From Deltaproteobacteria bacterium (GTDB lineage: Bacteria > Desulfobacterota > Binatia > Binatales > Binataceae): a stretch of 64,000 nucleotides of DNA. The notes beneath the pieces were generated by a model. The model ran no database searches, had not been told where the DNA came from, and saw only the letters and a program-made list of their open reading frames with translations. Below, piece by piece: positions 5,826 through 63,757 of this stretch. Every line of letters begins with the position of its first letter. The first letter of the stretch is position 1. The stretch lies in NCBI GenBank assembly GCA_003161515.1, contig PMOH01000316.1, positions 1,210 to 65,209 of the forward strand, written 5' to 3'. The position numbers were made by a program, and so were the translations under genes.

Positions 5826-6290
5826 ATGCCGACCGTGAACATCCCGCCTTGGCTGCGAAAACTCAAACAGAGCTGGTGGTTTCAACTGATCGTCCAGCCT
5901 TTCGTAGTCGCGGCGATGCCGGTCTTATATCTGTCGTCGAACGGGTTTGCTGACATCACATCTAACTCCATCAAGGCCGCCGCGATCGCCGGTGGATCGT
6001 CACTCTACTCCGCATACCAGAAGGGCTTTAACGACCCATCGTACAATCCATCGGGGACGGACAATCAGCAAATCGCCGAAGTCGTGAAAGCCGACGCCGC
6101 CAACTCGCCGGTTGCCGTCGTTCCAGTCTCATCGCCGCAAGTGCGCGAGCGGATTCGTGATGTGGTAGACTCGGGCGCTCCCGTGGCCGTGGTGACGCAA
6201 CCGACTCTCGCGCTGAGTGACGCGATGCAAAAAGCGAACGCGGATAGCAGCGTGCCGACAACCGCATCGATAGCGAATAAGCCATCGTGA
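5826..6290 (+). CDS. membrane protein
   Basis: N-terminal transmembrane segment (WWFQLIVQPFVVAAMPVLYL). Function unknown. Confidence 0.4.
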   Translation: MPTVNIPPWLRKLKQSWWFQLIVQPFVVAAMPVLYLSSNGFADITSNSIKAAAIAGGSSLYSAYQKGFNDPSYNPSGTDNQQIAEVVKADAANSPVAVVPVSSPQVRERIRDVVDSGAPVAVVTQPTLALSDAMQKANADSSVPTTASIANKPS

Positions 6291-6465: not shown

Positions 6466-6936
6466 ATGACCCCGGAACAGCAGGAGAGGACGATGCAGAC
6501 ACCGCCGTACGAAGAGCGTTTCGATAACGAATACTGGCGCATCAAGTCGATCACGATAATATGGGCGTCCTTCTGGGTGATGGTATTCCTCCTGGGACTG
6601 CTAGTGATCGTATTCTTCAGCGGTTGCGCCACGATCGAGTTGGACTGCCCGACGACTGGGGGCGAGACCATCGCGGTTGGCGGTAGCACCGTCGGCAATC
6701 AGATCGTGGCGCTAGGTATCCTGGCGGCCCAAGGCGCGATGAAGTCGGGTGGCCTGGCGGCGCGTGAAGGAGCGACAGCGGCCGCCCCACCGCCGGTGAT
6801 GCACGTACACTATTCGTACGTTCCGATATTCGGATCCGACTATGTGTCATGCCAGGCGACGGGAGGCGGAGCGCCAGCGCCGATTCCCGTGGCGGTTATG
6901 AGCATGCCTGCGAACACGACGACGACGACTCACTGA
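6466..6936 (+). CDS. membrane protein
   Basis: Transmembrane segment IIWASFWVMVFLLGLLVIVFF followed by a Gly/Ala-rich region and a Thr-rich C-terminus. Confidence 0.4.
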   Translation: MTPEQQERTMQTPPYEERFDNEYWRIKSITIIWASFWVMVFLLGLLVIVFFSGCATIELDCPTTGGETIAVGGSTVGNQIVALGILAAQGAMKSGGLAAREGATAAAPPPVMHVHYSYVPIFGSDYVSCQATGGGAPAPIPVAVMSMPANTTTTTH

Positions 6937-7113: not shown

Positions 7114-7623
7114 ATGATCATTGACATCGGCGACGCCATCGTGGTGCTCGGAGATTCCGCGCTAAGTTGGGCCATCAGCAAAATTACCGGGCCAGTTTCT
7201 CATATTGGCTTAGTAACGAAGGTTGTGCCGGTCGTCGAGGTCACGCAGGCGCTCGGCGACGGCATCAAGACTCTCACGCTGCCCGAGACGATGGCGACCG
7301 CGCGCTACGGCTACTGTCTGCACGACAACCTCTTCCCGCTGGCCGATCGCCAAAAAATGGTCGCTTGGGGCTTGAAGCAACTCGGAACTCCGTACGCATT
7401 TGCGGATCTGGCGCTCGAGGCCATCGACGCGCTCACCGGAAGCGAGAAGGCCAGCATTTTCTTCGATCAAGACGGCGCCGATATTTGCAGCCAGTATTTT
7501 TCGCTCGCGGCGATCCAAGTCGGGCGGTCTTGCGGTATCACGCCGCGCAAGGCGACTCCCTCGGACTGGCTTCATTATTCTCTGGCACAGACGAGCTGGT
7601 CGACGCAGCCGATCGCGAAGTAA
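7114..7623 (+). CDS. possible permuted papain-fold (YiiX/NlpC-P60-like) hydrolase
   Basis: 169 aa. The layout resembles the YiiX/DUF830 family (SHIGLV ... C..H). This is weak, by-eye similarity only. Confidence 0.3.
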   Translation: MIIDIGDAIVVLGDSALSWAISKITGPVSHIGLVTKVVPVVEVTQALGDGIKTLTLPETMATARYGYCLHDNLFPLADRQKMVAWGLKQLGTPYAFADLALEAIDALTGSEKASIFFDQDGADICSQYFSLAAIQVGRSCGITPRKATPSDWLHYSLAQTSWSTQPIAK

Positions 7624-7633
7624 GGGAAAGCGG

Positions 7634-8920
7634 ATGAAGATCGTGTTCGTGACGACCTGTAAGAATCGTGCCGCCCATCTGGCCAGAACGCTGCCGAAGA
7701 ACTTGGAGGACAATCCTCGATCGACGTTCCTGGTTCTGGACTATGGCAGCCAAGATGATTTGACATCTGTGCTGATGCCTTACCGGGACTTCAAGTACGG
7801 ACGGCTAGTTGTCTATCATTATCCGACCGACGGACCGTTCCGCATGGCCCACGCGAAAAACATGGCGCACCGGCTCGGAATCTTGGAAGGCGCCGACGTC
7901 TTGGTAAACCTCGACGCGGATAACTACCTCGGCGCCGGGTTCGAAGACTTTGTCGCGGAGAGATTTGAGAGCGACACGTTTCTCTGGTCCGGGCTGGTGC
8001 AGGGTCTCGGCCGCAAAATGCGGGGGGTCAGCGGCCGGATCGCGGTGACGCCGCAGGCGTTTCTCAAAGCCGGCGGTTACGATGAGAAGAAGTACGACAC
8101 TTGGGGGCCTGACGATAAGGATTTCAATGCCCGACTCTGTCACTTGGGCTACCGGCCCGTCCAGATCGATCGAAACTATCTGGCGGCGATCCCGCATGGC
8201 GATGGCGTGCGTTTTAAGGAGTACCCCGAGGCGCGTGAGAACGCGTTAGGAGAAGAGGCGGAACTGCCGCCGCCGGAGACCGCGGTCGCCAACTTTGGAA
8301 AGTTTGGCATGGGCGAGGTTCTCGGGCCCGGTGGCGCCCTGCAACTCGGCCCGATACCGACGCGCATCTTCGGAATCGGGTTGCACAAGACCGCGACCAG
8401 CTCGCTGCACGCCGCTCTTCAAATCCTGGGTTACGAGAGCGCTCACTGGGAGTCGGGGGCTTGGGCCAAAAGCGTCTGGGATGAAGTGCGCGCGGGAGGG
8501 ATTGCTCCGACCTTGGAGAAGTTTTATGCGGCGTCGGACCTGCCGATTAGCATTCTCTACAAAGAGCTGGATCGCGCGTATCCGGGATCGAAGTTCATCC
8601 TGACGATTCGGAATGAAGCCGAATGGCTGCGCAGCGTGCGCGATCACTTTTCGTACAAGAATCCGTTTCGGTGGGAATGGGACGTCTACCCGTTCAGCAA
8701 CGTGATCCATCAGGCGATTTACGGGCGCAAGACCTTCGACTACCACACCTTCCGGGCGCGCTATCGTTGGCACAACGCGGAAGTGATCGAGCATTTCAAG
8801 AATCGGCCCGATGATTTACTGGTGATGCGCACGCCGGCGTGGACAGATCTCTGCCGGTTTCTCGGAAACCCGGTTCCGAGCGTCGACTACCCGAGAAAAT
8901 TCGTAACTAACGGAGGATAA
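7634..8920 (+). CDS. bifunctional GT-A glycosyltransferase / sulfotransferase fusion protein
   Basis: ATG at 7634 with a GGGAAAG RBS. The N-terminal half has a beta4GalT/GT2-like GT-A fold with LVLDYGSQDD and a DAD metal motif. The C-terminal half has the sulfotransferase 5'-PSB P-loop GLHKTATSS and 3'-PB-like RNEAEWLRS. Confidence 0.5.
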   Translation: MKIVFVTTCKNRAAHLARTLPKNLEDNPRSTFLVLDYGSQDDLTSVLMPYRDFKYGRLVVYHYPTDGPFRMAHAKNMAHRLGILEGADVLVNLDADNYLGAGFEDFVAERFESDTFLWSGLVQGLGRKMRGVSGRIAVTPQAFLKAGGYDEKKYDTWGPDDKDFNARLCHLGYRPVQIDRNYLAAIPHGDGVRFKEYPEARENALGEEAELPPPETAVANFGKFGMGEVLGPGGALQLGPIPTRIFGIGLHKTATSSLHAALQILGYESAHWESGAWAKSVWDEVRAGGIAPTLEKFYAASDLPISILYKELDRAYPGSKFILTIRNEAEWLRSVRDHFSYKNPFRWEWDVYPFSNVIHQAIYGRKTFDYHTFRARYRWHNAEVIEHFKNRPDDLLVMRTPAWTDLCRFLGNPVPSVDYPRKFVTNGG

Positions 8921-8923
8921 CCA

Positions 8924-9808
8924 ATGACGCGTTTTAAGCTGGGGCAATTGCCGCCCGAACCAGATCCTAAAGCCAAGCTGCTCAAGAACTATCTCGATCG
9001 CAAGGCGATCACACCCCCGGCGACCGAACCGATCGACATGAGCAAGTACGCGGCGAAGTACGACTATGTGATGACTGCCATGATGGCTAACGGGCCTGAC
9101 CCGGTCGCGCCGCTAAAAATCGCGCCGTTCGGAGTTGGCGACTGCGTATTCGCAGCAGCGGTACGCTTCGCTGCCCTTGAAGGGCTGAGCCGGGGGCGTG
9201 TCCTGTTCAAGAACGCGGCTGATATGTGTACCGCCGCGCTCGATGGATACGCGAGCACCGGTTGGGACATCAACCAGACCGACTCGCAGGGCAACAACCC
9301 GACTGACCAAGGCACGATCCCGAACCGCGCTTTCAAGTGGCTCCAGACCAAGGGCTTGCTGTGCTCGAATGGTTCGCGCCACAAGTTCGGCCCGATGCTG
9401 CAGGTCAATCCCCTCGACTTCGCGGAAGTCATCATCGCGATGAATATCGCCCAAGGTATCATGATCGGGGTCAACTTCCCGGCTGCCTGGGACAACTCGC
9501 CGATATGGGACGTGACCAACACGCCACTCGAAGGTGGACACGAGATCCCCGGCTACTCGGACCTGAAGCTGACGACCAGCGGTATCCAGATCGACACTTG
9601 GGGCAACGCGGCGCCGGGGCCGCGCATCATTACGCCGGGTGGTCTCGCGCAGCAATGCAACCAACTCACGGTCATTATCGATCCGCTGGAGTTCGGATTC
9701 GGGCGCCACGGCAAGAAGGCCAACGGAAAGCGCCGGCGCGGGCGGAACATCGAGGGCTTCAACCATGCTCAGTGGCTCGCGGATGTTGCGGCTGACGGCG
9801 GATTTTAG
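8924..9808 (+). CDS. hypothetical protein, possible papain-like peptidase
   Basis: 294 aa. It has a GDCVFAAA Cys-containing motif and a downstream GGHEIPGY, which could be a Cys/His dyad. Speculative. Confidence 0.3.
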   Translation: MTRFKLGQLPPEPDPKAKLLKNYLDRKAITPPATEPIDMSKYAAKYDYVMTAMMANGPDPVAPLKIAPFGVGDCVFAAAVRFAALEGLSRGRVLFKNAADMCTAALDGYASTGWDINQTDSQGNNPTDQGTIPNRAFKWLQTKGLLCSNGSRHKFGPMLQVNPLDFAEVIIAMNIAQGIMIGVNFPAAWDNSPIWDVTNTPLEGGHEIPGYSDLKLTTSGIQIDTWGNAAPGPRIITPGGLAQQCNQLTVIIDPLEFGFGRHGKKANGKRRRGRNIEGFNHAQWLADVAADGGF

Positions 9809-9925: not shown

Positions 9926-10408
9926 ATGGCACGCGACAAAAAAGGTCGGTTCATCTCGGAGCGCACGCGGATTCGATTGGCGGCAGCGGCGGCTAAGAGA
10001 GCGGCGGCGCTTCTCGCCGTGCCGCACGAGGAAGTAGCCAAAGAGTTGCTGTCCGGAGACACCTACAGTCTCGGAGACGCACCGAATTCGCCGGGCAAAG
10101 AAGCAGAAGCGCCGCTCGACACTCTCGACCTCGAGGCGACGCATCACTCTCCGGAATCCGAAAGCAAGGCATGGAAAGCCATCCTCATCGCTCTGTCGGT
10201 GATCGGGTTGCTATGCGCCGCTGGCTGGTACGCGCTAAATCGCTCGCAGTTGGAGTCGCCCCCGGAGCCGACCGAACTTGTTTCCCCGGCCGCGTCGAGC
10301 GCGAGCGCATCGCCAAGTGATACGCCGACGCCGATGGTGACTCCTTCGCCGAGCGCGTCCGCCACGCCGGTCGATTTTCGCAAATACAGCGAACCGGATA
10401 ACGACTGA
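9926..10408 (+). CDS. membrane-anchored Pro/Ser-rich protein
   Basis: Single transmembrane segment (ILIALSVIGLLCAAGWYAL), then an SPSAS low-complexity extracytoplasmic tail. Confidence 0.35.
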   Translation: MARDKKGRFISERTRIRLAAAAAKRAAALLAVPHEEVAKELLSGDTYSLGDAPNSPGKEAEAPLDTLDLEATHHSPESESKAWKAILIALSVIGLLCAAGWYALNRSQLESPPEPTELVSPAASSASASPSDTPTPMVTPSPSASATPVDFRKYSEPDND

Positions 10409-11105: not shown

Positions 11106-11654
11106 ATGAAAGTGCGGAAAAATGTAGCGCGACTGATAGGGCTAGCTGCAATTATTGCTTTGTTCGGCACGCTCAGCCTCAAACCGGATCCGCTCCGGGT
11201 CTTCCAGACGATCGCCGCCGCCGTAACCGCGACCGTAACCGCGACCGCAACCGCGACCGCAACCGCGACTACGACCGCTACGGCCACGCCGGTTGTCGCA
11301 GTATTTCCCACGCCGACTGTCGTCGCCGCGCCCGCCGGCTGCGCATCTATCGCAGGCCTCGGGCCCTATACCATCGGCGTGAGCTGGTGTCAGGATCAGA
11401 GCCAATCGCCCTACGTGCTCATGGTCTGGAACGGAGTTTCGTTCGTCCGGCCCGCTGCGCTCACGAAAGGCGTCACGCCGCCATCGACCGCACCTGATAC
11501 CGCGCTGTGGCTGAACACCAACGATTATCCGCCGGTGCTCGAACAGTGCAGCGCCTCGACCTGCTCGCCGGCACGGTGCCTAGTCGGAGTTTGCGGCATT
11601 TGGAATCCCCTGATGATTCCAAACTACGGGCCGCTGGCGTCGCCCGTGCCCTAA
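11106..11654 (+). CDS. secreted protein or lipoprotein with (Thr-Ala)n repeat
   Basis: Signal peptide MKVRKNVARLIGLAAIIALFGTLSL. The TATVTATATATATATTTATATP tract is encoded by a 12-bp tandem DNA repeat. Confidence 0.4.
   Translation: MKVRKNVARLIGLAAIIALFGTLSLKPDPLRVFQTIAAAVTATVTATATATATATTTATATPVVAVFPTPTVVAAPAGCASIAGLGPYTIGVSWCQDQSQSPYVLMVWNGVSFVRPAALTKGVTPPSTAPDTALWLNTNDYPPVLEQCSASTCSPARCLVGVCGIWNPLMIPNYGPLASPVP
11224..11285 (+). repeat. 12-bp tandem repeat (GTAACCGCGACC / GCAACCGCGACC) x about 5
   Basis: Tandem iterations are directly visible in the sequence. They lie inside CDS 11106-11654. Confidence 0.7.
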
Positions 11655-12064: not shown

Positions 12065-12302
12065 CGATTCCTATACCGGCAAGGCCGCATCGATCGTTCA
12101 AGAGGTCGAAGACATCGCAATTTTATTTGGCTGGTCGTTCGAGCGCCTCTACAACGGATTCTGGCAAAGCCCCCGCGGGCTCGCGGCGGTGCTTCTCGAC
12201 GACGATCAGATCGACTCAATCGACGAAAACTACGCCATCATTCGCCCCAAGCAGGCCGGCGGGAAGACCCTCAAATTCTGGCGTGTGACCAATGGCTACT
12301 GA
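12015..12302 (+). CDS. hypothetical protein
   Basis: 95-aa ORF directly upstream of the terminase and overlapping its start. Confidence 0.3.
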   Translation: MMENMSKAPEAQAMARDDSYTGKAASIVQEVEDIAILFGWSFERLYNGFWQSPRGLAAVLLDDDQIDSIDENYAIIRPKQAGGKTLKFWRVTNGY

Positions 12303-13902
12303 GAGTTTCGAATCACTATCTTCCGCCGAGCAGGAGGTTATTCTGACCCGCGCCTGTCCTGACTATTGGCTCGAAAAGACGACTGGCGAAAAGGCTTGGG
12401 CTAGGCAGGTCGAGGTCATGCAGGCGGTTGCGATGCACCCGCGGGTGGCGGTCGCGTCCGGGAATGGAATTGGGAAAACGTGGCTCGCTGCTCGGTTGGC
12501 GGCCTGGTTCCTAAGCGTCTTCTCCCCTGCGACCGTGGTGACTACCGCGCCGAACATGCGTCAAGTGAAAGACCTCCTCTGGAAAGAAATTCAGGTCGTC
12601 GCTGGCAAGGCCAAAGAGAATGGGCATGATCTTGGCGGCGAACTGTTCACCGCGAGTTGGGAATTTCCCGCGCTCAAGAGAAGGGGCATTAGGCACTACG
12701 GCGTCGGCTTCGCCTCGAAAGAATACGACGTCAACCAATTTCAGGGCTATCACAACTCACACATTTTGGTGATAGAGGATGAGGCCGCCGGCATCAGTGA
12801 GCCGGTCGACGAAGGGATCAACTCGATACTCAAAGGCGCCTTCACCCGCTGGCTGAAAATCGGCAACCCGACCACACTCAAAGGGCCGTTCTTCGGAGCC
12901 TTCAAGAGTAAAGACTGGGTCTGTTATCACATTTCGCAATTCGATACCCCGAACGTAAATGCCGTCCCTCCACCGCGAATATTTGAACAGGATCTCGGCA
13001 CGCGCAAAGAAATCATGGAGCGGTTCCTCGATAGCCTCCTCACGATGCCGATCAGTATCGATGGCGTTGTAACCCCGGCAAATATCAAGAGCGACTTCTA
13101 CAAATGGGGCGAAGATCATCCGCTCTGGCAGGCGCGTGTGCTCGGGCAGTTTCCGGATCGGACGGAGGACACCTTCATCGCGATCTCGTGGGTCGAGCGC
13201 GCCGCGGCGGCGACTCGCAATCTGGAAGGCGCGACTATCGACGTCGGTGTCGACGTCGCGCGCTATGGCAGCGCGAACACGGTCTTTGTCGCGCGCATCG
13301 GCGATCGGCCTGCACAGGGAAACGCATTCGCTTGGGAGAAGTACGGTCAGCAGGGCTTGATGGTTACGTGCGGCCGCATTATCCAGTTTATTTCAAAGAT
13401 CCGTGCCTTTTGGAAGGAAGTGGCCCCCGCGAATCTGCCCTGCCCGCTGATTCGAGTCAAAATCGACGCAGTTGGCCTCGGTGCGGGCGCCTACGATCGC
13501 TGCAAGGAGATCTTCGACGGTGAAGAATGGCGCGTGGATGGCCGACGTACCGTCACGGTCCACGAAATGATCGAGCATCGCACCGCGCGCAATCCCATCC
13601 AATACACCAACGCTACTACCGAATGGTGGGCGCTGACAGCACGAGGCTTCGAAGCCGGGGACATCTCCGGCGAGGTCTTCGCTGACAAAGACCTGATGGA
13701 CGAATTGGTCTCGCGCAAATACGAATACGGGTCCGATGGGAGAATGCGAGCAGAGAGCAAGGAGGCCATGAAGACACGCGGCGAGGCTTCACCGGACTTC
13801 GGCGACGCCGTGGTGATCGCTTACGCAGACATACCAATGAGTTTATTCGATGATGAGGAGCCGTCATCCGGCCTACACGCAGGTCTTGTCTACGGCAGGT
13901 AG
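12292..13902 (+). CDS. terL: terminase large subunit
   Basis: Walker A (GNGIGKTW) and Walker B (ILVIEDEAAG) motifs. The C-terminal half is RNase-H-like nuclease (IDAVGLGAGAYD ... DFGDAVVIA). It lies directly upstream of the portal. Confidence 0.8.
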   Translation: MATESFESLSSAEQEVILTRACPDYWLEKTTGEKAWARQVEVMQAVAMHPRVAVASGNGIGKTWLAARLAAWFLSVFSPATVVTTAPNMRQVKDLLWKEIQVVAGKAKENGHDLGGELFTASWEFPALKRRGIRHYGVGFASKEYDVNQFQGYHNSHILVIEDEAAGISEPVDEGINSILKGAFTRWLKIGNPTTLKGPFFGAFKSKDWVCYHISQFDTPNVNAVPPPRIFEQDLGTRKEIMERFLDSLLTMPISIDGVVTPANIKSDFYKWGEDHPLWQARVLGQFPDRTEDTFIAISWVERAAAATRNLEGATIDVGVDVARYGSANTVFVARIGDRPAQGNAFAWEKYGQQGLMVTCGRIIQFISKIRAFWKEVAPANLPCPLIRVKIDAVGLGAGAYDRCKEIFDGEEWRVDGRRTVTVHEMIEHRTARNPIQYTNATTEWWALTARGFEAGDISGEVFADKDLMDELVSRKYEYGSDGRMRAESKEAMKTRGEASPDFGDAVVIAYADIPMSLFDDEEPSSGLHAGLVYGR

Positions 13903-47093: not shown

Positions 47094-47160
47094 ACCCTGA
47101 TCAAGTAACATGCGCGATGGACCGAATCACGTATGCGTCCGTCAATTCGGAGCAACCCTG

Positions 47161-47676
47161 ATGTCATTTGCCAAGGCACTCAACTTCACTCTCATGGACT
47201 TGGAAGGCGGCTACGTGCTTACCGACCGCCCCGGAGACGCGGGGGGCCCCACCTATGCGGGCATCACCGAACGTCTCGCGGTCGCGGCTGGCTATCAATG
47301 GCATCCGCCCTTTGACCCCGTCGAAGTAGCCAACATCTATCGCTCGCAGTTCTGGGATACTTGCCGCTGTAGTGAACTCCCCGAGCCTTCCGATGCCGTC
47401 CTGTTTCAATGCGCCGTGAACATCGGGCAGGGCGAGGCGCTTAAGATCGACCACGAAGAAGTAAAGATATTTCAACGCGCGATAGGCGTGACCCCTGATG
47501 GTGATTTTGGACCGAAGACACTGGCGGCGGCCCTGTCAGTGGCGCGCGACACGCTCCCCGACCTGATCCTAGAGGAGCAGGACGCGTACTATCGCATGAT
47601 AGGCGGGTCTAACGTGAAGGGCTGGCTCAACCGCACCGAGAAGGTCCGCAAGGCGATCGCTACCGGGGTGTTGTAG
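47161..47676 (+). CDS. endolysin (GH108 lysozyme-like domain + PG_binding_3)
   Basis: LEGGYVLTDRPGDAGGPTYAGIT is the GH108 catalytic-region signature. The C-terminus is IGVTPDGDFGPKTLAAA peptidoglycan-binding. The ORF could start at ATG 47110. Confidence 0.6.
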   Translation: MSFAKALNFTLMDLEGGYVLTDRPGDAGGPTYAGITERLAVAAGYQWHPPFDPVEVANIYRSQFWDTCRCSELPEPSDAVLFQCAVNIGQGEALKIDHEEVKIFQRAIGVTPDGDFGPKTLAAALSVARDTLPDLILEEQDAYYRMIGGSNVKGWLNRTEKVRKAIATGVL

Positions 47677-54455: not shown

Positions 54456-55183
54456 CGACACCCGAACTTGTAATGGCAGCAAGTGGCATTCTCTTCGGGG
54501 GCGGGGTGCTATTCGCGGAATTTCGACGACGTATAGTCGACGAGAAACAAGAATCTGCGGATAAGCTCGCGCACGTGAAGGAACTCAACGACGCAAAGTT
54601 AGAAGCGGCGAAAAATCATGCGAATCTGTCGGGCAAACTGGATATGGCGGCTCTCCTACAGAGTGTGCAGTTCCAGCACCTTCAAGGTGTCACCAAAACA
54701 GCCGCCGAATCGCCAGCAACCACCATCGAAGTAGCCAACAACACGATTCAATCCCTAAGCAACCAAGTCAAGGAATTGACGGAATACACTCGCCACGTCA
54801 CACATGATCAATTCCGTCGCTTTGGAGAAGCCGTCCCTAACATTTTGGCCCTAGAACGTGGCGACGGCCATGCATACTGGCGGGACTACGCTGGCGTTCG
54901 GATACTCTATTGCCACTACATCGAGTCGATTAACTATGCCCAAGAGCTGATGGGTTTATTCGGGGCCTCAGCGATCACGGTCACTAGTTGGGAAGACAAT
55001 AGCTACGAAGCACTTAATATTGCTGGCCTCAAATTGCTGATCGCCGATCCGGGCAACCCAACAGACAACAATGTCAAGACAATGGCGCTTCTTCGAGCAG
55101 CGGATATTCAATTTGAAGTCGAAAAGCGGGAGACGGACGCCCCCCTTATCTCAACGTTACGCGTCGGTCGGTGCGCGGGATGA
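54452..55183 (+). CDS. membrane-anchored coiled-coil protein
   Basis: Transmembrane segment (VMAASGILFGGGVLFA) followed by a coiled coil. Local GC is lower, so it could be a moron. Confidence 0.4.
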   Translation: MTTPELVMAASGILFGGGVLFAEFRRRIVDEKQESADKLAHVKELNDAKLEAAKNHANLSGKLDMAALLQSVQFQHLQGVTKTAAESPATTIEVANNTIQSLSNQVKELTEYTRHVTHDQFRRFGEAVPNILALERGDGHAYWRDYAGVRILYCHYIESINYAQELMGLFGASAITVTSWEDNSYEALNIAGLKLLIADPGNPTDNNVKTMALLRAADIQFEVEKRETDAPLISTLRVGRCAG

Positions 55184-56028
55184 ACTATCAGCACCTTCGC
55201 GCACTCGTAGTCAACGACTACGCGATCAACAATCAGCGCTCGGATGTATTGAATGCCCGCCTGAAGCACCTCGACGACGCCTTCGCCTTGTCAACAGGCT
55301 CTATCTCGGCTGTGGATATCCAGTCATATACCGCCGGTAGATTAGCTCAAGGTACAGCCCCCGGAACCGTCAACCAAGAGTTAGCTGCGCTGCGCCGGAT
55401 GTTCAGTCTTGCGGTCAAACTCCGTCTGATCACTCTCGATCAAAAGCCTTGGATTCAACTTCTTCGCTTGCGCAACGCGCGCAAAGGCTTCTTCGAGAAA
55501 GACCAGTACGAGAGTGTCAAACGTGCTCTGCCAGAGCCGTATCGCCCGATCGTCACCACGATGTTCATCACGGGTTGGAGATGCCAAGAAGTTTTGTCCC
55601 GGCAGAAAAAGCATCTCGACCTAGCTAATGGATGGTTGCGGCTCGACCCAGGTGAGACCAAAAATGGCGAGGGCCGCGAGTTTCCGCTGACCCGCGATCT
55701 CCGCGCGTGTCTTACTCCGCAGCTCGCGGAAGTCAAGGCTTTTGAGCATCGCACGGGCAGGATCGTGCCGTGGCTTTTCCACAGGGACGGCGAGCGGATC
55801 TGTGGATTCAGGCGCGCTTGGGAGAACGCTTGCAAGCAGGCCGGCGTGCCGGGGCGGATGCTTCACGACTTCCGGAGAACAGCCGTTCGTAACATGGAGC
55901 GGAAAGGTGTCCCGCGCTCGGCCGCGATGAAGATGGTTGGAATGCTGACTGAGTCGATCTATCGTCGCTACGCGATCGTTGATGAGACTGTGCTGAAGGA
56001 GGCCGGCGCTAAGCTGGATGCATTATGA
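55171..56028 (+). CDS. int: tyrosine recombinase (phage integrase family)
   Basis: Catalytic-domain motifs are present (R in ...TGWRCQEV, LHDFRRT with His/Arg, and a terminal ESIYRRYA with the nucleophilic Tyr). At 285 aa it is short, with a core-binding but no arm-binding domain. Confidence 0.7.
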   Translation: MRGMNYQHLRALVVNDYAINNQRSDVLNARLKHLDDAFALSTGSISAVDIQSYTAGRLAQGTAPGTVNQELAALRRMFSLAVKLRLITLDQKPWIQLLRLRNARKGFFEKDQYESVKRALPEPYRPIVTTMFITGWRCQEVLSRQKKHLDLANGWLRLDPGETKNGEGREFPLTRDLRACLTPQLAEVKAFEHRTGRIVPWLFHRDGERICGFRRAWENACKQAGVPGRMLHDFRRTAVRNMERKGVPRSAAMKMVGMLTESIYRRYAIVDETVLKEAGAKLDAL

Positions 56029-59371: not shown

Positions 59372-60025
59372 ATGAAGCCGTATTTTGAAGAGGCGGGGAT
59401 TACGATTTTTCACGGTGACTGCCGCGAAGTGCTCGGAATGTATTCGGGCTTTATCGTTACCGACCCGCCTTACGGTATCGACCATCCGACCGACTATAGG
59501 GCGCGGGGGCGGGGTGCGTTGGCTGAGTGTGCTGATTATCCGCGCGTGGCTGGCGATGCCGAGCCTTTTGAGCCGTCTTTCTTGCTTGACCGACCCTGCG
59601 TGCTATTCGGAGCCAATTACTTCGCTGACAGGCTGCCGCCGTCGTCGGGCTGGCTAGTCTGGGACAAGATGCGCCCACATGGCCTCGACCAAGCGACTGC
59701 GGAACTGGCGTGGTCGAATTTCGTCAAGGGTGTTCGGGTGTTTCGCTATCTCTGGAACGGCATGATCAGGGATGGCAACGAGGCATTAGAGCACCCGACA
59801 CAGAAGCCGGTCGCGCTAATGAAATGGATTCTGGCGCTGAAATGGACGCCTGCGGGGCGGGTAATTGACCCCTTTATGGGCGCAGGCTCGACCCTAATCG
59901 CGGCGAAAGACATGGGGCGCGAGGCTGTCGGCATCGAACTCGAAGAACGGTATTGCGAAATTGCGGCACGGCGATTGAGCCAGTCAGCGATGCAATTCGG
60001 GACGCAAAATGAATCAAGGGACTAA
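59372..60025 (+). CDS. beta-class amino-DNA methyltransferase (N6-adenine or N4-cytosine)
   Basis: Motif IV TDPPYG near the N-terminus and motif I (FMGAGSTLIAAKDMGR) near the C-terminus. This circular permutation defines beta-class N6A/N4C MTases. Confidence 0.7.
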   Translation: MKPYFEEAGITIFHGDCREVLGMYSGFIVTDPPYGIDHPTDYRARGRGALAECADYPRVAGDAEPFEPSFLLDRPCVLFGANYFADRLPPSSGWLVWDKMRPHGLDQATAELAWSNFVKGVRVFRYLWNGMIRDGNEALEHPTQKPVALMKWILALKWTPAGRVIDPFMGAGSTLIAAKDMGREAVGIELEERYCEIAARRLSQSAMQFGTQNESRD

Positions 60026-61394: not shown

Positions 61395-61862
61395 ATGCAA
61401 ATCCGTAGAGCACAACCATGCGAAACGCGAAAACTAAAAGACTGGATCGCAGCGAATCACTACCTGCAATCCGCTCCTCCGGGATTTGTGCATCTCTACG
61501 AGTTCATCGAGGGCAAGGAATTGATCGGCGGGATGATTTTGGGCCGCCCATCCGCGAAGCAATACAACCCCGACAAAATCCTCCAACTTCACCGCGTCTT
61601 TTTCATCGACGATACCGCCCCGAATGTCGAGAGTCAGGGACTTTCCATGATGCGCCGCATGGTTCGGGTTTGGATACCGCAGATTCGCGGTCTCTTGTCC
61701 TATTCCGATCCAAGCATCGGCCACGAAGGGACGATTTACGAGGCCGATATGTGGTGTCCGCTCGGCCTGACCGACGAACACTGGGGCTACGGGTGGAAAA
61801 GCCGCGAAGGACGGCGCGATCAACGGGTCAGTCGCAAGATGCGATGGTTTAGAACGCCATGA
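61395..61862 (+). CDS. hypothetical protein (cargo of cassette B)
   Basis: 155 aa with a hydrophobic-core-like pattern (IAANHYLQSAPPGFVHLYEF ... GGMILGRP). No motif I can assign. The stop overlaps the next start (ATGA). Confidence 0.4.
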   Translation: MQIRRAQPCETRKLKDWIAANHYLQSAPPGFVHLYEFIEGKELIGGMILGRPSAKQYNPDKILQLHRVFFIDDTAPNVESQGLSMMRRMVRVWIPQIRGLLSYSDPSIGHEGTIYEADMWCPLGLTDEHWGYGWKSREGRRDQRVSRKMRWFRTP

Positions 61863-62856: not shown

Positions 62857-63053
62857 AAACTCTACGTCCAAAGAAAAAACCAATCTGGGGGATGCTTATC
62901 TATCGCACTACCAGCAAAGGCGTAGACCACATGCCGGAGATCCTGAATCAGATGACCGCCCAAGAGGCTCGGCAAGCGAAGGTCTGCATGGCGGGCGGCA
63001 ACACGATGGTCGTGTTCTACCCGATGCTCAAGAAAGGGGAATTATTGATTTGA
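62853..63053 (+). CDS. hypothetical small protein
   Basis: 66 aa. Its last codons run into the left TIR of cassette C. Confidence 0.3.
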   Translation: MKTLRPKKKPIWGMLIYRTTSKGVDHMPEILNQMTAQEARQAKVCMAGGNTMVVFYPMLKKGELLI

Positions 63054-63059
63054 GTCCCT
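63037..63059 (+). repeat. TIR (left, cassette C)
   Basis: GGGAATTATTGATTTGAGTCCCT. Confidence 0.85.
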
Positions 63060-63076
63060 CAATCAAAAACTCTCTC

Positions 63077-63757
63077 GTTTGGTTAGACCTTTGCTCCGGC
63101 CTAGGTGGCGCGAGTCAGCCGGCGTTGGATCGCGGTTGGAGGGTTATCAGAATCGACCTTGACTCTCGCTTCAGGCCCGACATCGTGGCCGACGTTCGCG
63201 CGCTGCCGCTCAAGGGCTATTGGGAATCTAGGGCGCTCCGCATCGATGTGCTGTGGGCGAGTCCGCCTTGCCAGGATTTTAGCAAACACGGACTGCGTTG
63301 CTTCTATCCGAATCCGCCGGAGCCGGATTTATCAATCGCTAACGCCGTCGGGGCGTTGATCAACCGACTTCAACCGCGTTTCTGGGTGATTGAGAACGTG
63401 TGGGCGGCTCGTCCGTGGTTCACGAAGCTGTTCGGTCAGGTACGCGCCAAGCCGCCAGGCCACGCGCTGTGGTCCAACCTCGCATTCCTGCTTCCGAACA
63501 TCGAGCCGCACAAGAGTTCCAGCGTCCAACTTAAGTCGAGAGGCATCGGAGCGATTCCAGGAAAACCAGGCGATTGGCGCAAGACCTATCGAGGCCTTAG
63601 AGAGAGGCATGCCACCGGAATAAGACCCGTCAAAGCTACGCCGGGGCGCTGGATGGGCAGTCACCACGATATGACGCCAGCGGAAGCAGCCGTAATTCCC
63701 TATCCGATCGGTGAGGCCATCTGCGCAGCGGTGGAGCGAAGGGACTCAAATCAATAA
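63077..63757 (+). CDS. DNA cytosine-5 methyltransferase-like protein (short)
   Basis: Motif I (DLCSGLGG), motif IV (SPPCQDFS, the catalytic Pro-Cys) and motif VI (ENV). It is only about 227-235 aa with no clear motifs IX/X or target-recognition domain. Start is ambiguous (TTG at 63050 inside the TIR, or TTG at 63077). The stop TAA lies inside the right TIR. Confidence 0.5.
   Translation, partial: VWLDLCSGLGGASQPALDRGWRVIRIDLDSRFRPDIVADVRALPLKGYWESRALRIDVLWASPPCQDFSKHGLRCFYPNPPEPDLSIANAVGALINRLQPRFWVIENVWAARPWFTKLFGQVRAKPPGHALWSNLAFLLPNIEPHKSSSVQLKSRGIGAIPGKPGDWRKTYRGLRERHATGIRPVKATPGRWMGSHHDMTPAEAAVIPYPIGEAICAAVERRDSNQ

Follow-up and report, generated by a model that had tools for sequence, protein, structure and literature searches.

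Why would a temperate tailed phage carry one gene that joins a glycosyltransferase to a sulfotransferase, and what might the product of such a gene modify? The question is raised by a locus in the window, by which we mean the whole stretch of 64,000 nucleotides that was analyzed; all coordinates given here are positions in it (Table 1). A sequence-only reading had claimed that a single protein of 428 amino acids combines a GT-A fold glycosyltransferase (GT) with a C-terminal sulfotransferase (ST), and that its gene occupies an accessory position in a phage. Both claims hold, the first by profile, sequence and predicted fold. The component domains are already known; the phage-specific bifunctional module is uncharacterized. 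Our main reading, to which we give a probability of about 0.7, is that the fusion is a phage accessory enzyme, probably expressed late, that would build a sulfated sugar on a conserved acceptor.

Table 1. Features of the fusion gene and its neighbors in the window.
Feature	Positions	Strand	Basis or remark
Upstream gene, 169 aa	7114..7623	+	ends 10 nt before the fusion
GT-ST fusion gene, 428 aa	7634..8920	+	ATG start, stop TAA 8918-8920
GT-A glycosyltransferase domain, aa 1-195, GT2/GT7-like, inverting type	7634..8218	+	PF02709, PF10111, Foldseek
DxD motif D94-A95-D96, inside NLDADN	7913..7921	+	invariant in 40 homologues
GGYDE...WGPDDKDF segment, aa 147-164, beta4GalT/GT2-type acidic region	8072..8125	+	conservation, PF02709/K4CP/B4GalT1 alignment
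Inter-domain segment, aa 196-242, beta-hairpin VNFGxFGxGxV	8219..8359	+	conservation, AF2 model
S. mansoni-type sulfotransferase domain, aa 243-428	8360..8917	+	PF17784, PDB profile matches, Foldseek
5'-phosphosulfate-binding loop G247-I-G-L-H-K-T-A-T-S-S257	8372..8404	+	structure alignment, conservation
D302 in sDLP, invariant	8537..8539	+	aligned with tDLP Asp of schistosome SULTs
3'-phosphate-binding segment T324-I-R-N-E-A-E-W-L-R-S334	8603..8635	+	structure alignment, conservation
Papain-fold (C1-like) Cys/His protein, 294 aa	8924..9808	+	AF2, Foldseek, invariant residues
Single-pass membrane protein, 160 aa, Ser/Thr/Pro-rich C-terminal tail	9926..10408	+	TM aa 80-105

The ATG of the fusion gene is preceded by a ribosome-binding site (AAGGGAAAG). 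A longer ORF with a TTG start (7400-8920) was dropped because in each of 40 aligned homologues the N-terminus corresponds to the ATG. Read from the TTG, the ORF would overlap the gene upstream of the fusion. Residue conservation was scored in 40 homologues of 54-73% identity. The protein has no transmembrane segment, and its maximum 19-residue Kyte-Doolittle hydropathy is 0.81, which indicates that it is soluble. Its AF2 model has a pLDDT of 91.2 and a pTM of 0.90, and no NCBIfam model matches it.

The N-terminal half just reaches the cutoff of PF02709, Glyco_transf_7C (aa 133-174, E 4e-5, 23.6 bits against 23), and its match to the GT2-like family PF10111 is below threshold (aa 28-99, 17.6 bits against 27.3); the GT halves of homologues score higher, up to 38 bits with PF02709 and 41 bits with PF10111. 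Foldseek matches this half to K4CP (2z86), PmHS2 (8viw), SpsA (1qg8), 6p61 and B4GalT1 at E-values of 3e-8 to 1e-6, and a profile of its alignment finds chondroitin synthase in the PDB at E 0.007. The beta4GalT-like GT-A fold with DAD as its DxD motif, as first proposed from the letters, is upheld by PF02709, by Foldseek and by the motif itself, with N92, D94, A95, D96 and N97 of NLDADN invariant in the 40 homologues. In the acidic segment G147, G148, Y149, E151, D161 and F164 are invariant and D160 and D163 of WGPDDKDF are at least 90% conserved; this segment should hold the putative catalytic base. B4GalT1, K4 chondroitin polymerase (2Z86), PmHS2 and SpsA have the GT-A fold, the DxD and the Glyco_transf_7C acidic segment in common with the fusion, whereas the GT half of the latter is pared down to about 195 aa and its sequence matches lie at or near threshold. 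Among the cellular relatives of the GT half are proteins in which several GT domains occur together, as in polymerases. The genomic context of cellular GT-only relatives (Chitinophaga, Gemmatimonadales) offered nothing informative.

The C-terminal half matches PF17784 (Sulfotransfer_4) over aa 244-422 and profile positions 1-209 of 215, with an E-value of 1.5e-32 and 113.6 bits against a cutoff of 22.8. Its PDB profile matches are 5tiz, 9kf1 and 4mua (E 3e-15 to 4e-14), Foldseek returns 8y9p (TM 0.74), 9kf2 (TM 0.69) and 8e5q (E 1.1e-8), and it aligns end to end with PAP-bound sulfotransferase structures. In the loop containing GLHKTATSS, G247, G249, H251, K252, T253 and S257 are invariant in the 40 homologues, and the stretch G247-S257 corresponds in alignments to GAGLPRTGTxS in the SmSULT and Cpz8 structures and to the sequences GAGLPRTGTLS and GAGFGRTGTLS. 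In the segment containing RNEAEWLRS, T324 and W331 are invariant and R326 and S334 at least 90% conserved; T324-S334 aligns with LTIRDxxxWLxSxR of solved sulfotransferases. Hence the motifs picked out in the sequence-only reading, namely DAD, GLHKTATSS, RNEAEWLRS and LVLDY (of which Y37 is invariant), are all present, the first three in columns that are invariant or nearly so, and motif conservation, as judged from the alignment, is far above chance. Asp91 of SmSULT hydrogen-bonds the acceptor hydroxyl (PMC4618941), and we infer, together with the equivalence in numbering, that D302 would be its counterpart. That the C-terminal half is instead a P-loop kinase or ATPase, as the sequence-only reading had allowed, is extremely improbable, for it has a generic P-loop-like GxxxxKT motif alone in its favor, whereas the PF17784 match (E 1.5e-32), the alignment to PAP-bound structures, Foldseek and all of the significant C-terminal matches point to sulfotransferases, and a true P-loop kinase (APS kinase), where present, is a separate adjoining gene.

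SmSULT-OR (4MUA/4MUB), Cpz8 of Streptomyces (9KF1/9KF2) and SgdX2 (8Y9P) have the PF17784 family and fold in common with the fusion, and also the 5'-PSB loop, the Arg/Ser segment of the 3'-PB and the Asp of xDLP. However, they are single-domain proteins of about 200-260 aa that act on small-molecule substrates in eukaryotes or actinomycete pathways, whereas the ST domain of the fusion, which is about 23-26% identical to them, is joined to a GT and carried by a phage.

The segment between the two domains is also constrained: N220, G222, G225 and G227 of its hairpin are invariant in the 40 homologues, and the AF2 model places strands at 227-231 and 234-238. The pTM of 0.90 suggests that the GT and ST domains are packed in a fixed manner. 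We picture the fusion as a soluble, cytoplasmic, bifunctional enzyme that would be cargo of a temperate tailed phage. Its GT half would be a minimal inverting GT-A enzyme, in which D94-x-D96 binds the nucleotide-sugar and a divalent metal and a sugar is moved onto an acceptor hydroxyl with an acidic base from the WGPDDKDF segment. The ST half would hold PAPS with the GxGxHKTxTxS loop and the R326/S334 segment and would sulfate a hydroxyl placed by the invariant D302. Because the packing is rigid in the model, the hairpin is invariant and the fusion is intact in essentially all relatives, the two steps presumably act on one substrate; in the simplest version the ST half would sulfate the sugar freshly added by the GT half. 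Since the nearest characterized sulfotransferases act on small molecules rather than on glycans, a sugar as the acceptor of the ST half is put forward as a proposal only, and the order of the reactions, the donor sugar and the acceptor are parts of the model that we infer.

The fusion lies inside the phage, between the regulators and the terminase and just upstream of the packaging genes. Its GC and GC3 are those of the phage, and the gaps to its neighbors are 10 nt upstream and 3 nt downstream. An integrase at 55171-56028, 46 kb from the fusion, indicates that the phage is temperate. An autonomous moron cassette was considered and rejected; promoter and terminator signals on either side do not exceed what chance would give, and the composition is the same as that of the phage. 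PADLOC gave no defense-system match on the island, and no APS kinase or other gene for PAPS, no second GT and no sugar-nucleotide gene was found in the window.

Both flanking genes had been read as papain-like and, together with the membrane protein, as possible members of one accessory island. The first idea stands for the downstream gene. Its ribosome-binding site, GGAGGA, is inside the 3' end of the fusion, and GDC (C74), GGH (H206) and WG (W226, G227) are invariant in 16 sequences of its product; C74 and H206 would be the catalytic Cys and His. The AF2 model (pLDDT 83.8) is matched by Foldseek to xylellain (3ois, E 1.4e-9, TM 0.54/0.59) and also to procathepsins K, B, L and H. The protein has no sequence match in Pfam, NCBIfam or the PDB and falls outside Peptidase_C1 or similar profiles; judging from the model, it would behave as a papain-fold enzyme that fits no curated family. 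The papain-like label finds no such backing for the upstream gene, which has no match in Pfam, NCBIfam, the PDB or deposited phages. Its sole weak match is PHROG 1128, annotated as enoyl-CoA hydratase-like, and it has an H...C motif that may recall permuted NlpC/P60 enzymes. Similarly, the shared island is borne out by the papain-fold gene, which recurs with the fusion (at 14 of 64 loci, always within four genes of it), but not by the upstream gene and the membrane protein, which occur only in copies of this phage. Family matches of the membrane protein are sub-threshold only.

The fusion itself belongs to a large family. It matches 1,504 clusters at 90% identity, the best 120 of which are all near-full-length fusions, and among 50%-identity representatives 7,107 proteins match at E<=1e-3 and 92 at E<=1e-30. 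Locus GC ranges from 36 to 67% across the carriers, and the identity of the fusion is still at least about 45%. Full-length copies number 63 in IMG/VR viral contigs and zero in 50,697 deposited phage records; in 185,579 species genomes, one of the best 80 matches is full-length and the other 79 cover one half only. The earlier remark that phage-borne sulfotransferases are rare is thus correct only for the deposited phages; viral contigs from metagenomes commonly carry the fusion. Some of its carriers are contigs of about 200-265 kb, and one of these, with baseplate genes like those of T4, is likely to be a virulent jumbo phage. The family is highly conserved, near virus-only and under strong purifying conservation.

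Some homologues bear bacterial MAG names, and one full-length copy (L003) has genes for OmpA, fasciclin and a large helicase around it, so that its surroundings look cellular. Both observations would fit the view that the gene does not belong to the phage and either is cellular DNA beside a prophage or was fused recently by chance, which we regard as very improbable. The gene, however, lies between phage regulators and terminase with phage-like GC and GC3, viral contigs carry it 63 times, and the architecture is the same in the best 120 of the 1,504 matches.

The surroundings of the fusion differ from phage to phage. When 17 window proteins were compared with 152 loci by tblastn, the fusion alone was widely shared beyond copies of this phage (L001 and L083); homologues of the papain-fold protein were in few loci, and the protein at 5826-6290 had one extra match (L093). 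With the window's integrase, TerL, portal, TerS-like protein and endolysin as queries, jackhmmer returned one GH108 neighbor only. The recurrent kinds of neighbor are the papain-fold protein, APS kinase and sugar-O-methyltransferase-like genes. For example, an APS kinase (PF01583, E 3e-56) is at position +1 or +2 of the fusion in five loci, and at two loci (L117 and L132) the kinase gene overlaps or directly adjoins the genes beside it at its start and stop codons. This proximity lends indirect support to the predicted PAPS-dependent activity of the ST half. TylF/Methyltransf_24 genes adjoin the fusion in three distinct contexts (L107-110, L140 and L115). In some phages the module is thus extended by a papain-fold protein, by an enzyme resembling sugar O-methyltransferases and by an APS kinase of the phage's own, which would supply PAPS. 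In other phages, lysis, tail or terminase genes adjoin the fusion. Because of these neighbors, and because the gene in this phage is co-directional and tightly packed upstream of the packaging genes, the fusion is probably expressed with the late genes, gene order being the sole basis for this statement.

A sulfotransferase accompanied by a PAPS-supply gene has cellular precedents. In rhizobial Nod-factor sulfation, the sulfotransferase NodH occurs with the ATP sulfurylase/APS kinase NodPQ, and RaxST/RaxPQ/RaxB of Xanthomonas combines a sulfotransferase, PAPS supply and a papain-fold (C39) peptidase. The fusion loci that have an APS kinase or a papain-fold protein resemble these systems. However, NodH and Rax are cellular, belong to other sulfotransferase families and have no fused GT, whereas the fusion is viral; unlike the C39 protein of Rax, its papain-fold partner is C1-like and does not belong to a transporter.

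Which acceptor receives the sugar is more difficult to say. Because PF17784-type sulfotransferases are repeatedly fused to different GT families, a glycan acceptor is favored. A virion or other protein is one tentative candidate and a conserved envelope precursor another, each at well under even odds. A small molecule ranks next, and a strain-specific O-antigen is the least likely, because the fusion stays conserved in phages whose GC content differs widely.

One possible reading, held tentatively, is that a capsid, tail or host protein is O-glycosylated and sulfated late in infection. This would be consistent with a fusion that is almost virus-only and kept across hosts, that is found at late-operon boundaries beside tail, lysis or terminase genes and that has methyltransferase partners, which are typical of glycan decoration. 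In addition, a PF17784-type sulfotransferase is independently fused to a protein-directed, OGT-like GT41 (P0191), and giant-virus proteins in which the sulfotransferase family occurs alongside GTs are fold neighbors of the fusion. Phage GTs have also been proposed to glycosylate capsids (PMC11256854). Against this reading, the analysis turned up neither an acceptor protein nor a sequon, the phages that carry the fusion have unrelated structural proteins, and the nearest characterized sulfotransferases use small molecules.

Viruses that decorate glycans include chlorovirus PBCV-1, with A064R (GT-GT-methyltransferase), giant viruses, with fibril glycosylation, and mycobacteriophages, with virion glycosylation. 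The fusion is like these in its multi-domain GT-A enzyme joined to glycan tailoring, in its methyltransferase partners and in its giant-virus fold neighbors. To our knowledge, however, none of the chlorovirus, giant-virus or mycobacteriophage enzymes sulfates, and for the fusion a virion acceptor is putative.

A wider version, which is somewhat more doubtful, is that the fusion defines a 'sulfo-glycosylation' system specific to phages, which an APS kinase, a methyltransferase and a papain-fold protein may or may not join. Its target would be a universal one, such as virion proteins, a conserved protein or envelope precursor of the host or even nucleic acid.

Lysogenic conversion, one of the roles that the sequence-only reading had put forward, is rather unlikely. 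Here the fusion would place a sulfated sugar branch on the repeat unit of a host O-antigen, capsule or EPS at the cytoplasmic face, which would change the serotype and block superinfection. The phage is indeed temperate, the GT half is like the polysaccharide synthases K4CP, PmHS2 and SpsA and has multi-GT-domain proteins among its cellular relatives, as in polymerases, and at one jumbo-phage locus an LPS-type GT9 gene accompanies the fusion. The fusion, however, keeps its identity of at least about 45% across loci of 36-67% GC that otherwise have hardly any genes in common, scarcely occurs in polysaccharide loci of cells and is also present in the 200-265 kb contigs, including the likely virulent jumbo phage. 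Phage seroconversion modules (GtrABC, O-acetylases) are also accessory glycan-modifying cargo of temperate phages. In a Gtr-type module, the flippase GtrA, the bactoprenol GT GtrB and the membrane protein GtrC lie by the integrase or attP, whereas among the window's proteins neither a flippase nor a GT of the bactoprenol or membrane kind was found, and the fusion is away from the integrase/attachment region; unlike such modules, it is conserved across very different phages.

About equally unlikely is a small-molecule enzyme that makes a soluble sulfated glycoside (a metabolite, signal or nucleotide derivative), with the sulfate perhaps serving as an activating or leaving group. The best ST matches would suggest this, as they are SmSULT (prodrug activation), Cpz8 (caprazamycin pathway) and SgdX2 (an 'activating sulfotransferase'), and strong cross-host conservation fits a universal small acceptor. 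However, no PKS, NRPS or sugar-nucleotide synthesis genes accompany the fusion at the examined loci, and the repeated fusion of the sulfotransferase family to different GT families also speaks against it.

No role for sulfation has been established in phages. In viromic papers sulfotransferases are listed among putative auxiliary genes, and their function is called unclear (PMC10580990, PMC8290583); the phrase 'phage-encoded sulfotransferase' was not found in the literature. The fusion described here is well defined, abundant, strongly constrained and near viral-only, and it sometimes comes with its own PAPS supply, which makes it a tractable entry point. Should its product be a stable sulfated glycan, a strongly anionic modification would join the known interactions at phage and host surfaces; otherwise the enzyme would still be a compact GT-ST pair that might be useful in glycoengineering. 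In conclusion, if the 'sulfo-glycosylation' reading is true, phages would have a new route by which to alter their particles or to take over or evade the host, and sulfation would for the first time have a functional role in phages.

The sequence-only reading had claimed a single protein made of an N-terminal GT-A glycosyltransferase (GT) and a C-terminal PAPS sulfotransferase (ST), and this fusion (GT-ST) is confirmed by its open reading frame and by Pfam matches to both halves; PDB profile searches, Foldseek and conserved motifs also support the two-domain reading. Both domains are known families. The ST half matches PF17784 (Sulfotransfer_4; aa 244-422, E 1.5e-32) and, in sequence searches, resembles the schistosome oxamniquine-activating sulfotransferases and Streptomyces Cpz8 and SgdX2, matches that reach E 3e-15 with end-to-end alignment when a profile of 40 homologues is used. 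Three of its segments align with these enzymes: the 5'-PSB loop (GIGLHKTATSS aligned with GAGLPRTGTLS), the xDLP aspartate (D302 of sDLP aligned with the Asp of tDLP) and the 3'-PB segment (LTIRNEAEWLRS aligned with LTIRDxxxWLxSxR). Asp91 of SmSULT hydrogen bonds to the accepting hydroxyl (PMC4618941); we take the tDLP aspartate to be this residue, and D302 would then be its counterpart. Foldseek searches of the PDB also lead from the C-terminal half to sulfotransferases (8y9p, TM 0.74; 9kf2, TM 0.69; 8e5q, E 1e-8). A kinase or ATPase P-loop, the case that would have overturned the original proposal, is rejected on these matches in sequence, profile and predicted structure.

The GT half matches PF02709 (Glyco_transf_7C; aa 133-174) at E 4e-5, barely over the cutoff of that family, and aa 28-99 give a sub-threshold GT2-like match. 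Foldseek places this half among GT-A enzymes of the PDB, namely K4 chondroitin polymerase, heparosan synthase 2, SpsA and beta4GalT1. Across the 40 homologues, which are 54-73% identical to the window protein, the invariant residues include NLDADN (which holds the DxD motif), H73-A-K-N76, G147-G-Y149 and E151 of GGYDE (D150 is at least 90% conserved), D161 and F164 of WGPDDKDF, the hairpin residues N220, G222, G225 and G227, and, in the ST half, G247, G249, H251, K252, T253 and S257 of the 5'-PSB loop, D302, and T324 and W331 of the 3'-PB segment (R326 and S334 of which are at least 90% conserved). The AlphaFold2 model built from this alignment has a mean pLDDT of 91.2 and a pTM of 0.90, and the latter value suggests that the two domains are held in a fixed arrangement.

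The window belongs to a tailed phage of temperate type. Besides the terminase, endolysin and integrase listed below, it encodes a scaffold protein, a baseplate J protein, DNA methylases, a Mom-like protein and a PolB-type exonuclease. A 75.5-kb metagenomic contig has an identical fusion protein and unchanged gene order. The fusion start codon is preceded by a ribosome-binding site, AAGGGAAAG, and lies 10 nt from the upstream stop; 3 nt separate the fusion stop from the start of the following gene, the GGAGGA site of which is within the fusion 3' end. A longer TTG-initiated frame, with its start at 7400, would run over part of the upstream gene and is contradicted by the N-termini aligned across the 40 homologues. 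Since GC (0.585) and GC3 (0.727) are those of the phage and no flanking promoter or terminator was found above chance, the gene reads as an integrated member of a rightward operon, between early HTH regulators and the packaging genes. As no hydrophobic segment is present, the protein should be cytoplasmic.

Several other genes of the window display features of their own. The Mom-family gene and its two flanking DNA methyltransferase genes form an anti-restriction DNA-modification cluster. The 182-aa protein at 11106-11654 has a hydrophobic N-terminal segment and a Thr/Ala-rich tract, TATVTATATATATATTTATAT, coded by a 12-nt tandem repeat (11215-11278, 4.1 copies, 97% match). The island is bordered by three small proteins with one TM segment each (5826-6290, 6466-6936 and 9926-10408, the last with a C-terminal tail rich in Ser/Thr/Pro); none is conserved beside the fusion in other phages.

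A tblastn search with 17 window proteins found only the fusion to be widely shared outside copies of this phage; homologues of the 8924-9808 protein turned up in a few loci, and of the other proteins one gave one additional match. Clustering of 1,513 ORFs from 65 loci gave the same picture. Of the accessory island that had been proposed, the 8924-9808 family recurs in 14 of 64 loci, each time within four genes of the fusion; the 169-aa gene before the fusion and the membrane protein after it are not conserved partners. No curated sequence family was found to recognize the 8924-9808 protein; its invariant GDC, GGH and WG motifs and an AlphaFold2 model (pLDDT 83.8) that matches xylellain and procathepsins identify it as a predicted papain-fold Cys/His protein whose N-terminus resembles a pro-region.

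The other two kinds of recurrent partner are an APS kinase and a methyltransferase. The APS kinase (PF01583, E 3e-56) is at +1 or +2 of the fusion in five loci. In L117 and L132 the fusion is followed first by the APS kinase gene and then by the papain-fold gene, and their start and stop codons overlap or abut. PAPS is the product of APS kinase, and this linkage is the strongest independent support for the predicted role of the C-terminal half as a working PAPS sulfotransferase. TylF/Methyltransf_24 (sugar-O-methyltransferase-like) genes adjoin the fusion in L107-110, L140 and L115, three different contexts on unrelated phage contigs. Other frequent neighbors are endolysin, terminase or tail genes, which fits the edge of a late operon, a place in which phages carry cargo. 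A GH108 endolysin homologue is at +1 in L119; unlike the endolysins of L117, L115 and L119, that of the window is 38 kb from the fusion module.

Features of the window and of loci (L-numbers) around homologues of the fusion or of its GT half
Feature	Locus	Position	Strand	Details
GT-ST fusion	window	7634-8920	+	ATG start, 428 codons, TAA stop
Large terminase	window	12292-13902
GH108 endolysin	window	47110-47676
Tyrosine integrase	window	55171-56028
N6/N4-type DNA methyltransferase	window	59372-60025		flanks Mom-family gene
Mom-family protein	window	61395-61862		PF25680, E 8e-16
C5-type DNA methyltransferase	window	63050-63757		flanks Mom-family gene
Full-length fusion	L003	9956-11458		alphaproteobacterial MAG contig, 35 kb
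GT relative	L004	7694-11836		Gemmatimonadales MAG; 1,380 aa, four tandem GT domains, weak PF05679 (chondroitin-GalNAc-transferase) match
APS kinase	L092	11730-12323		PF01583
APS kinase	L095	11239-12105		PF01583 and cytidylyltransferase-like (nucleotidyltransferase) match
APS kinase	L115	11469-11990		PF01583
APS kinase	L117	11625-12146		PF01583
APS kinase	L132	11569-12081		PF01583
TylF/Methyltransf_24	L107	11341-11919
TylF/Methyltransf_24	L115	11990-12535
TylF/Methyltransf_24	L140	9988-10614
Lysozyme endolysin	L117	13032-13448		PF00959; directly after GT-ST/papain-fold module
Endolysin	L115	13822-14238		assigned by clustering with L117 lysozyme; directly after GT-ST/papain-fold module

At E<=1e-3, a word-indexed search with the fusion gave 1,504 proteins; each of the best 120 has at least 87% query coverage, 53-100% identity and 393-527 aa. 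An exhaustive search of 50%-identity representatives returned 7,107 proteins at E<=1e-3, of which 92 reach E<=1e-30. Both halves are present in about 20 representatives; the remainder are fragments or relatives in which a GT or an ST stands alone. IMG/VR has 63 full-length fusions on viral contigs of 4-265 kb, and the 50,697 deposited phage records have one weak match, to the GT half only. The viral loci range from 36 to 67% GC, and the fusion still keeps at least about 45% identity. One jumbo-sized contig (L155, IMGVR_UViG_3300032770_000002, 230 kb) also has T4 gp13-like and gp25-like genes, an LPS-type GT9 heptosyltransferase-family gene and a collagen-repeat protein. Among the best 80 matches in 185,579 species genomes (one genome each), one is a full-length fusion (L003) and the others match a single half, for example a 355-aa Chitinophaga protein. 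The neighbors of the L003 gene are in part of cellular type, with genes for OmpA and fasciclin to one side and, to the other, those for a 1,486-aa ResIII/DEAD helicase and a 1,410-aa TPR protein; this context may be a cellular island instead of a phage. Cellular relatives of the GT half occur as arrays of three or four GT domains, joined into one protein in L004, with L007, L011 and L028 arranged much like L004.

Judged from sequence and model, the fusion is one soluble protein with two intact predicted catalytic domains, a conserved linker and a predicted rigid packing; it is under strong purifying conservation, and it is linked to PAPS supply. We propose that the GT half would transfer the sugar of a nucleotide-sugar by an inverting mechanism, and that the ST half would then put sulfate on the sugar just transferred. 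The same sulfotransferase family has been fused independently to other GT families, which supports a glycan as the acceptor. These include P0191, a 1108-aa protein from the exhaustive search with TPR repeats, a GT41 (OGT-like) domain and two Sulfotransfer_4 domains, the sulfotransferase region of which is 36% identical to the window ST half, and giant-virus GT/ST proteins, which are fold neighbors.

As for the acceptor, a virion or other protein and a conserved envelope precursor are tentative candidates of equal rank. A small molecule ranks next and seems rather improbable; it is kept alive by the nearest characterized sulfotransferases, which use small molecules and yield labile or transferable sulfate esters. 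Conversion of a strain-specific O-antigen is argued against, and a conserved acceptor favored, because phages of very different composition keep the fusion, it is nearly absent from cellular glycan loci and no Gtr-type components were found in the window.

Some homologues already have the pipeline annotation 'Sulfotransferase domain/N-terminal domain of galactosyltransferase'. Our literature search found no functional work on a GT-ST fusion and no paper with the exact phrase 'phage-encoded sulfotransferase', and PADLOC and NCBIfam have no models for the fusion. One viromic paper calls the role of phage sulfotransferases unclear (PMC10580990) and another merely lists them as auxiliary genes (PMC8290583). 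We regard the fusion as a bifunctional GT-ST specific to phages, with an accessory module (APS kinase, methyltransferase and papain-fold protein) that varies. Its enzymology is unsurprising, but its distribution and conservation raise a neglected question, namely what use sulfation is to phages, and one that is directly testable.
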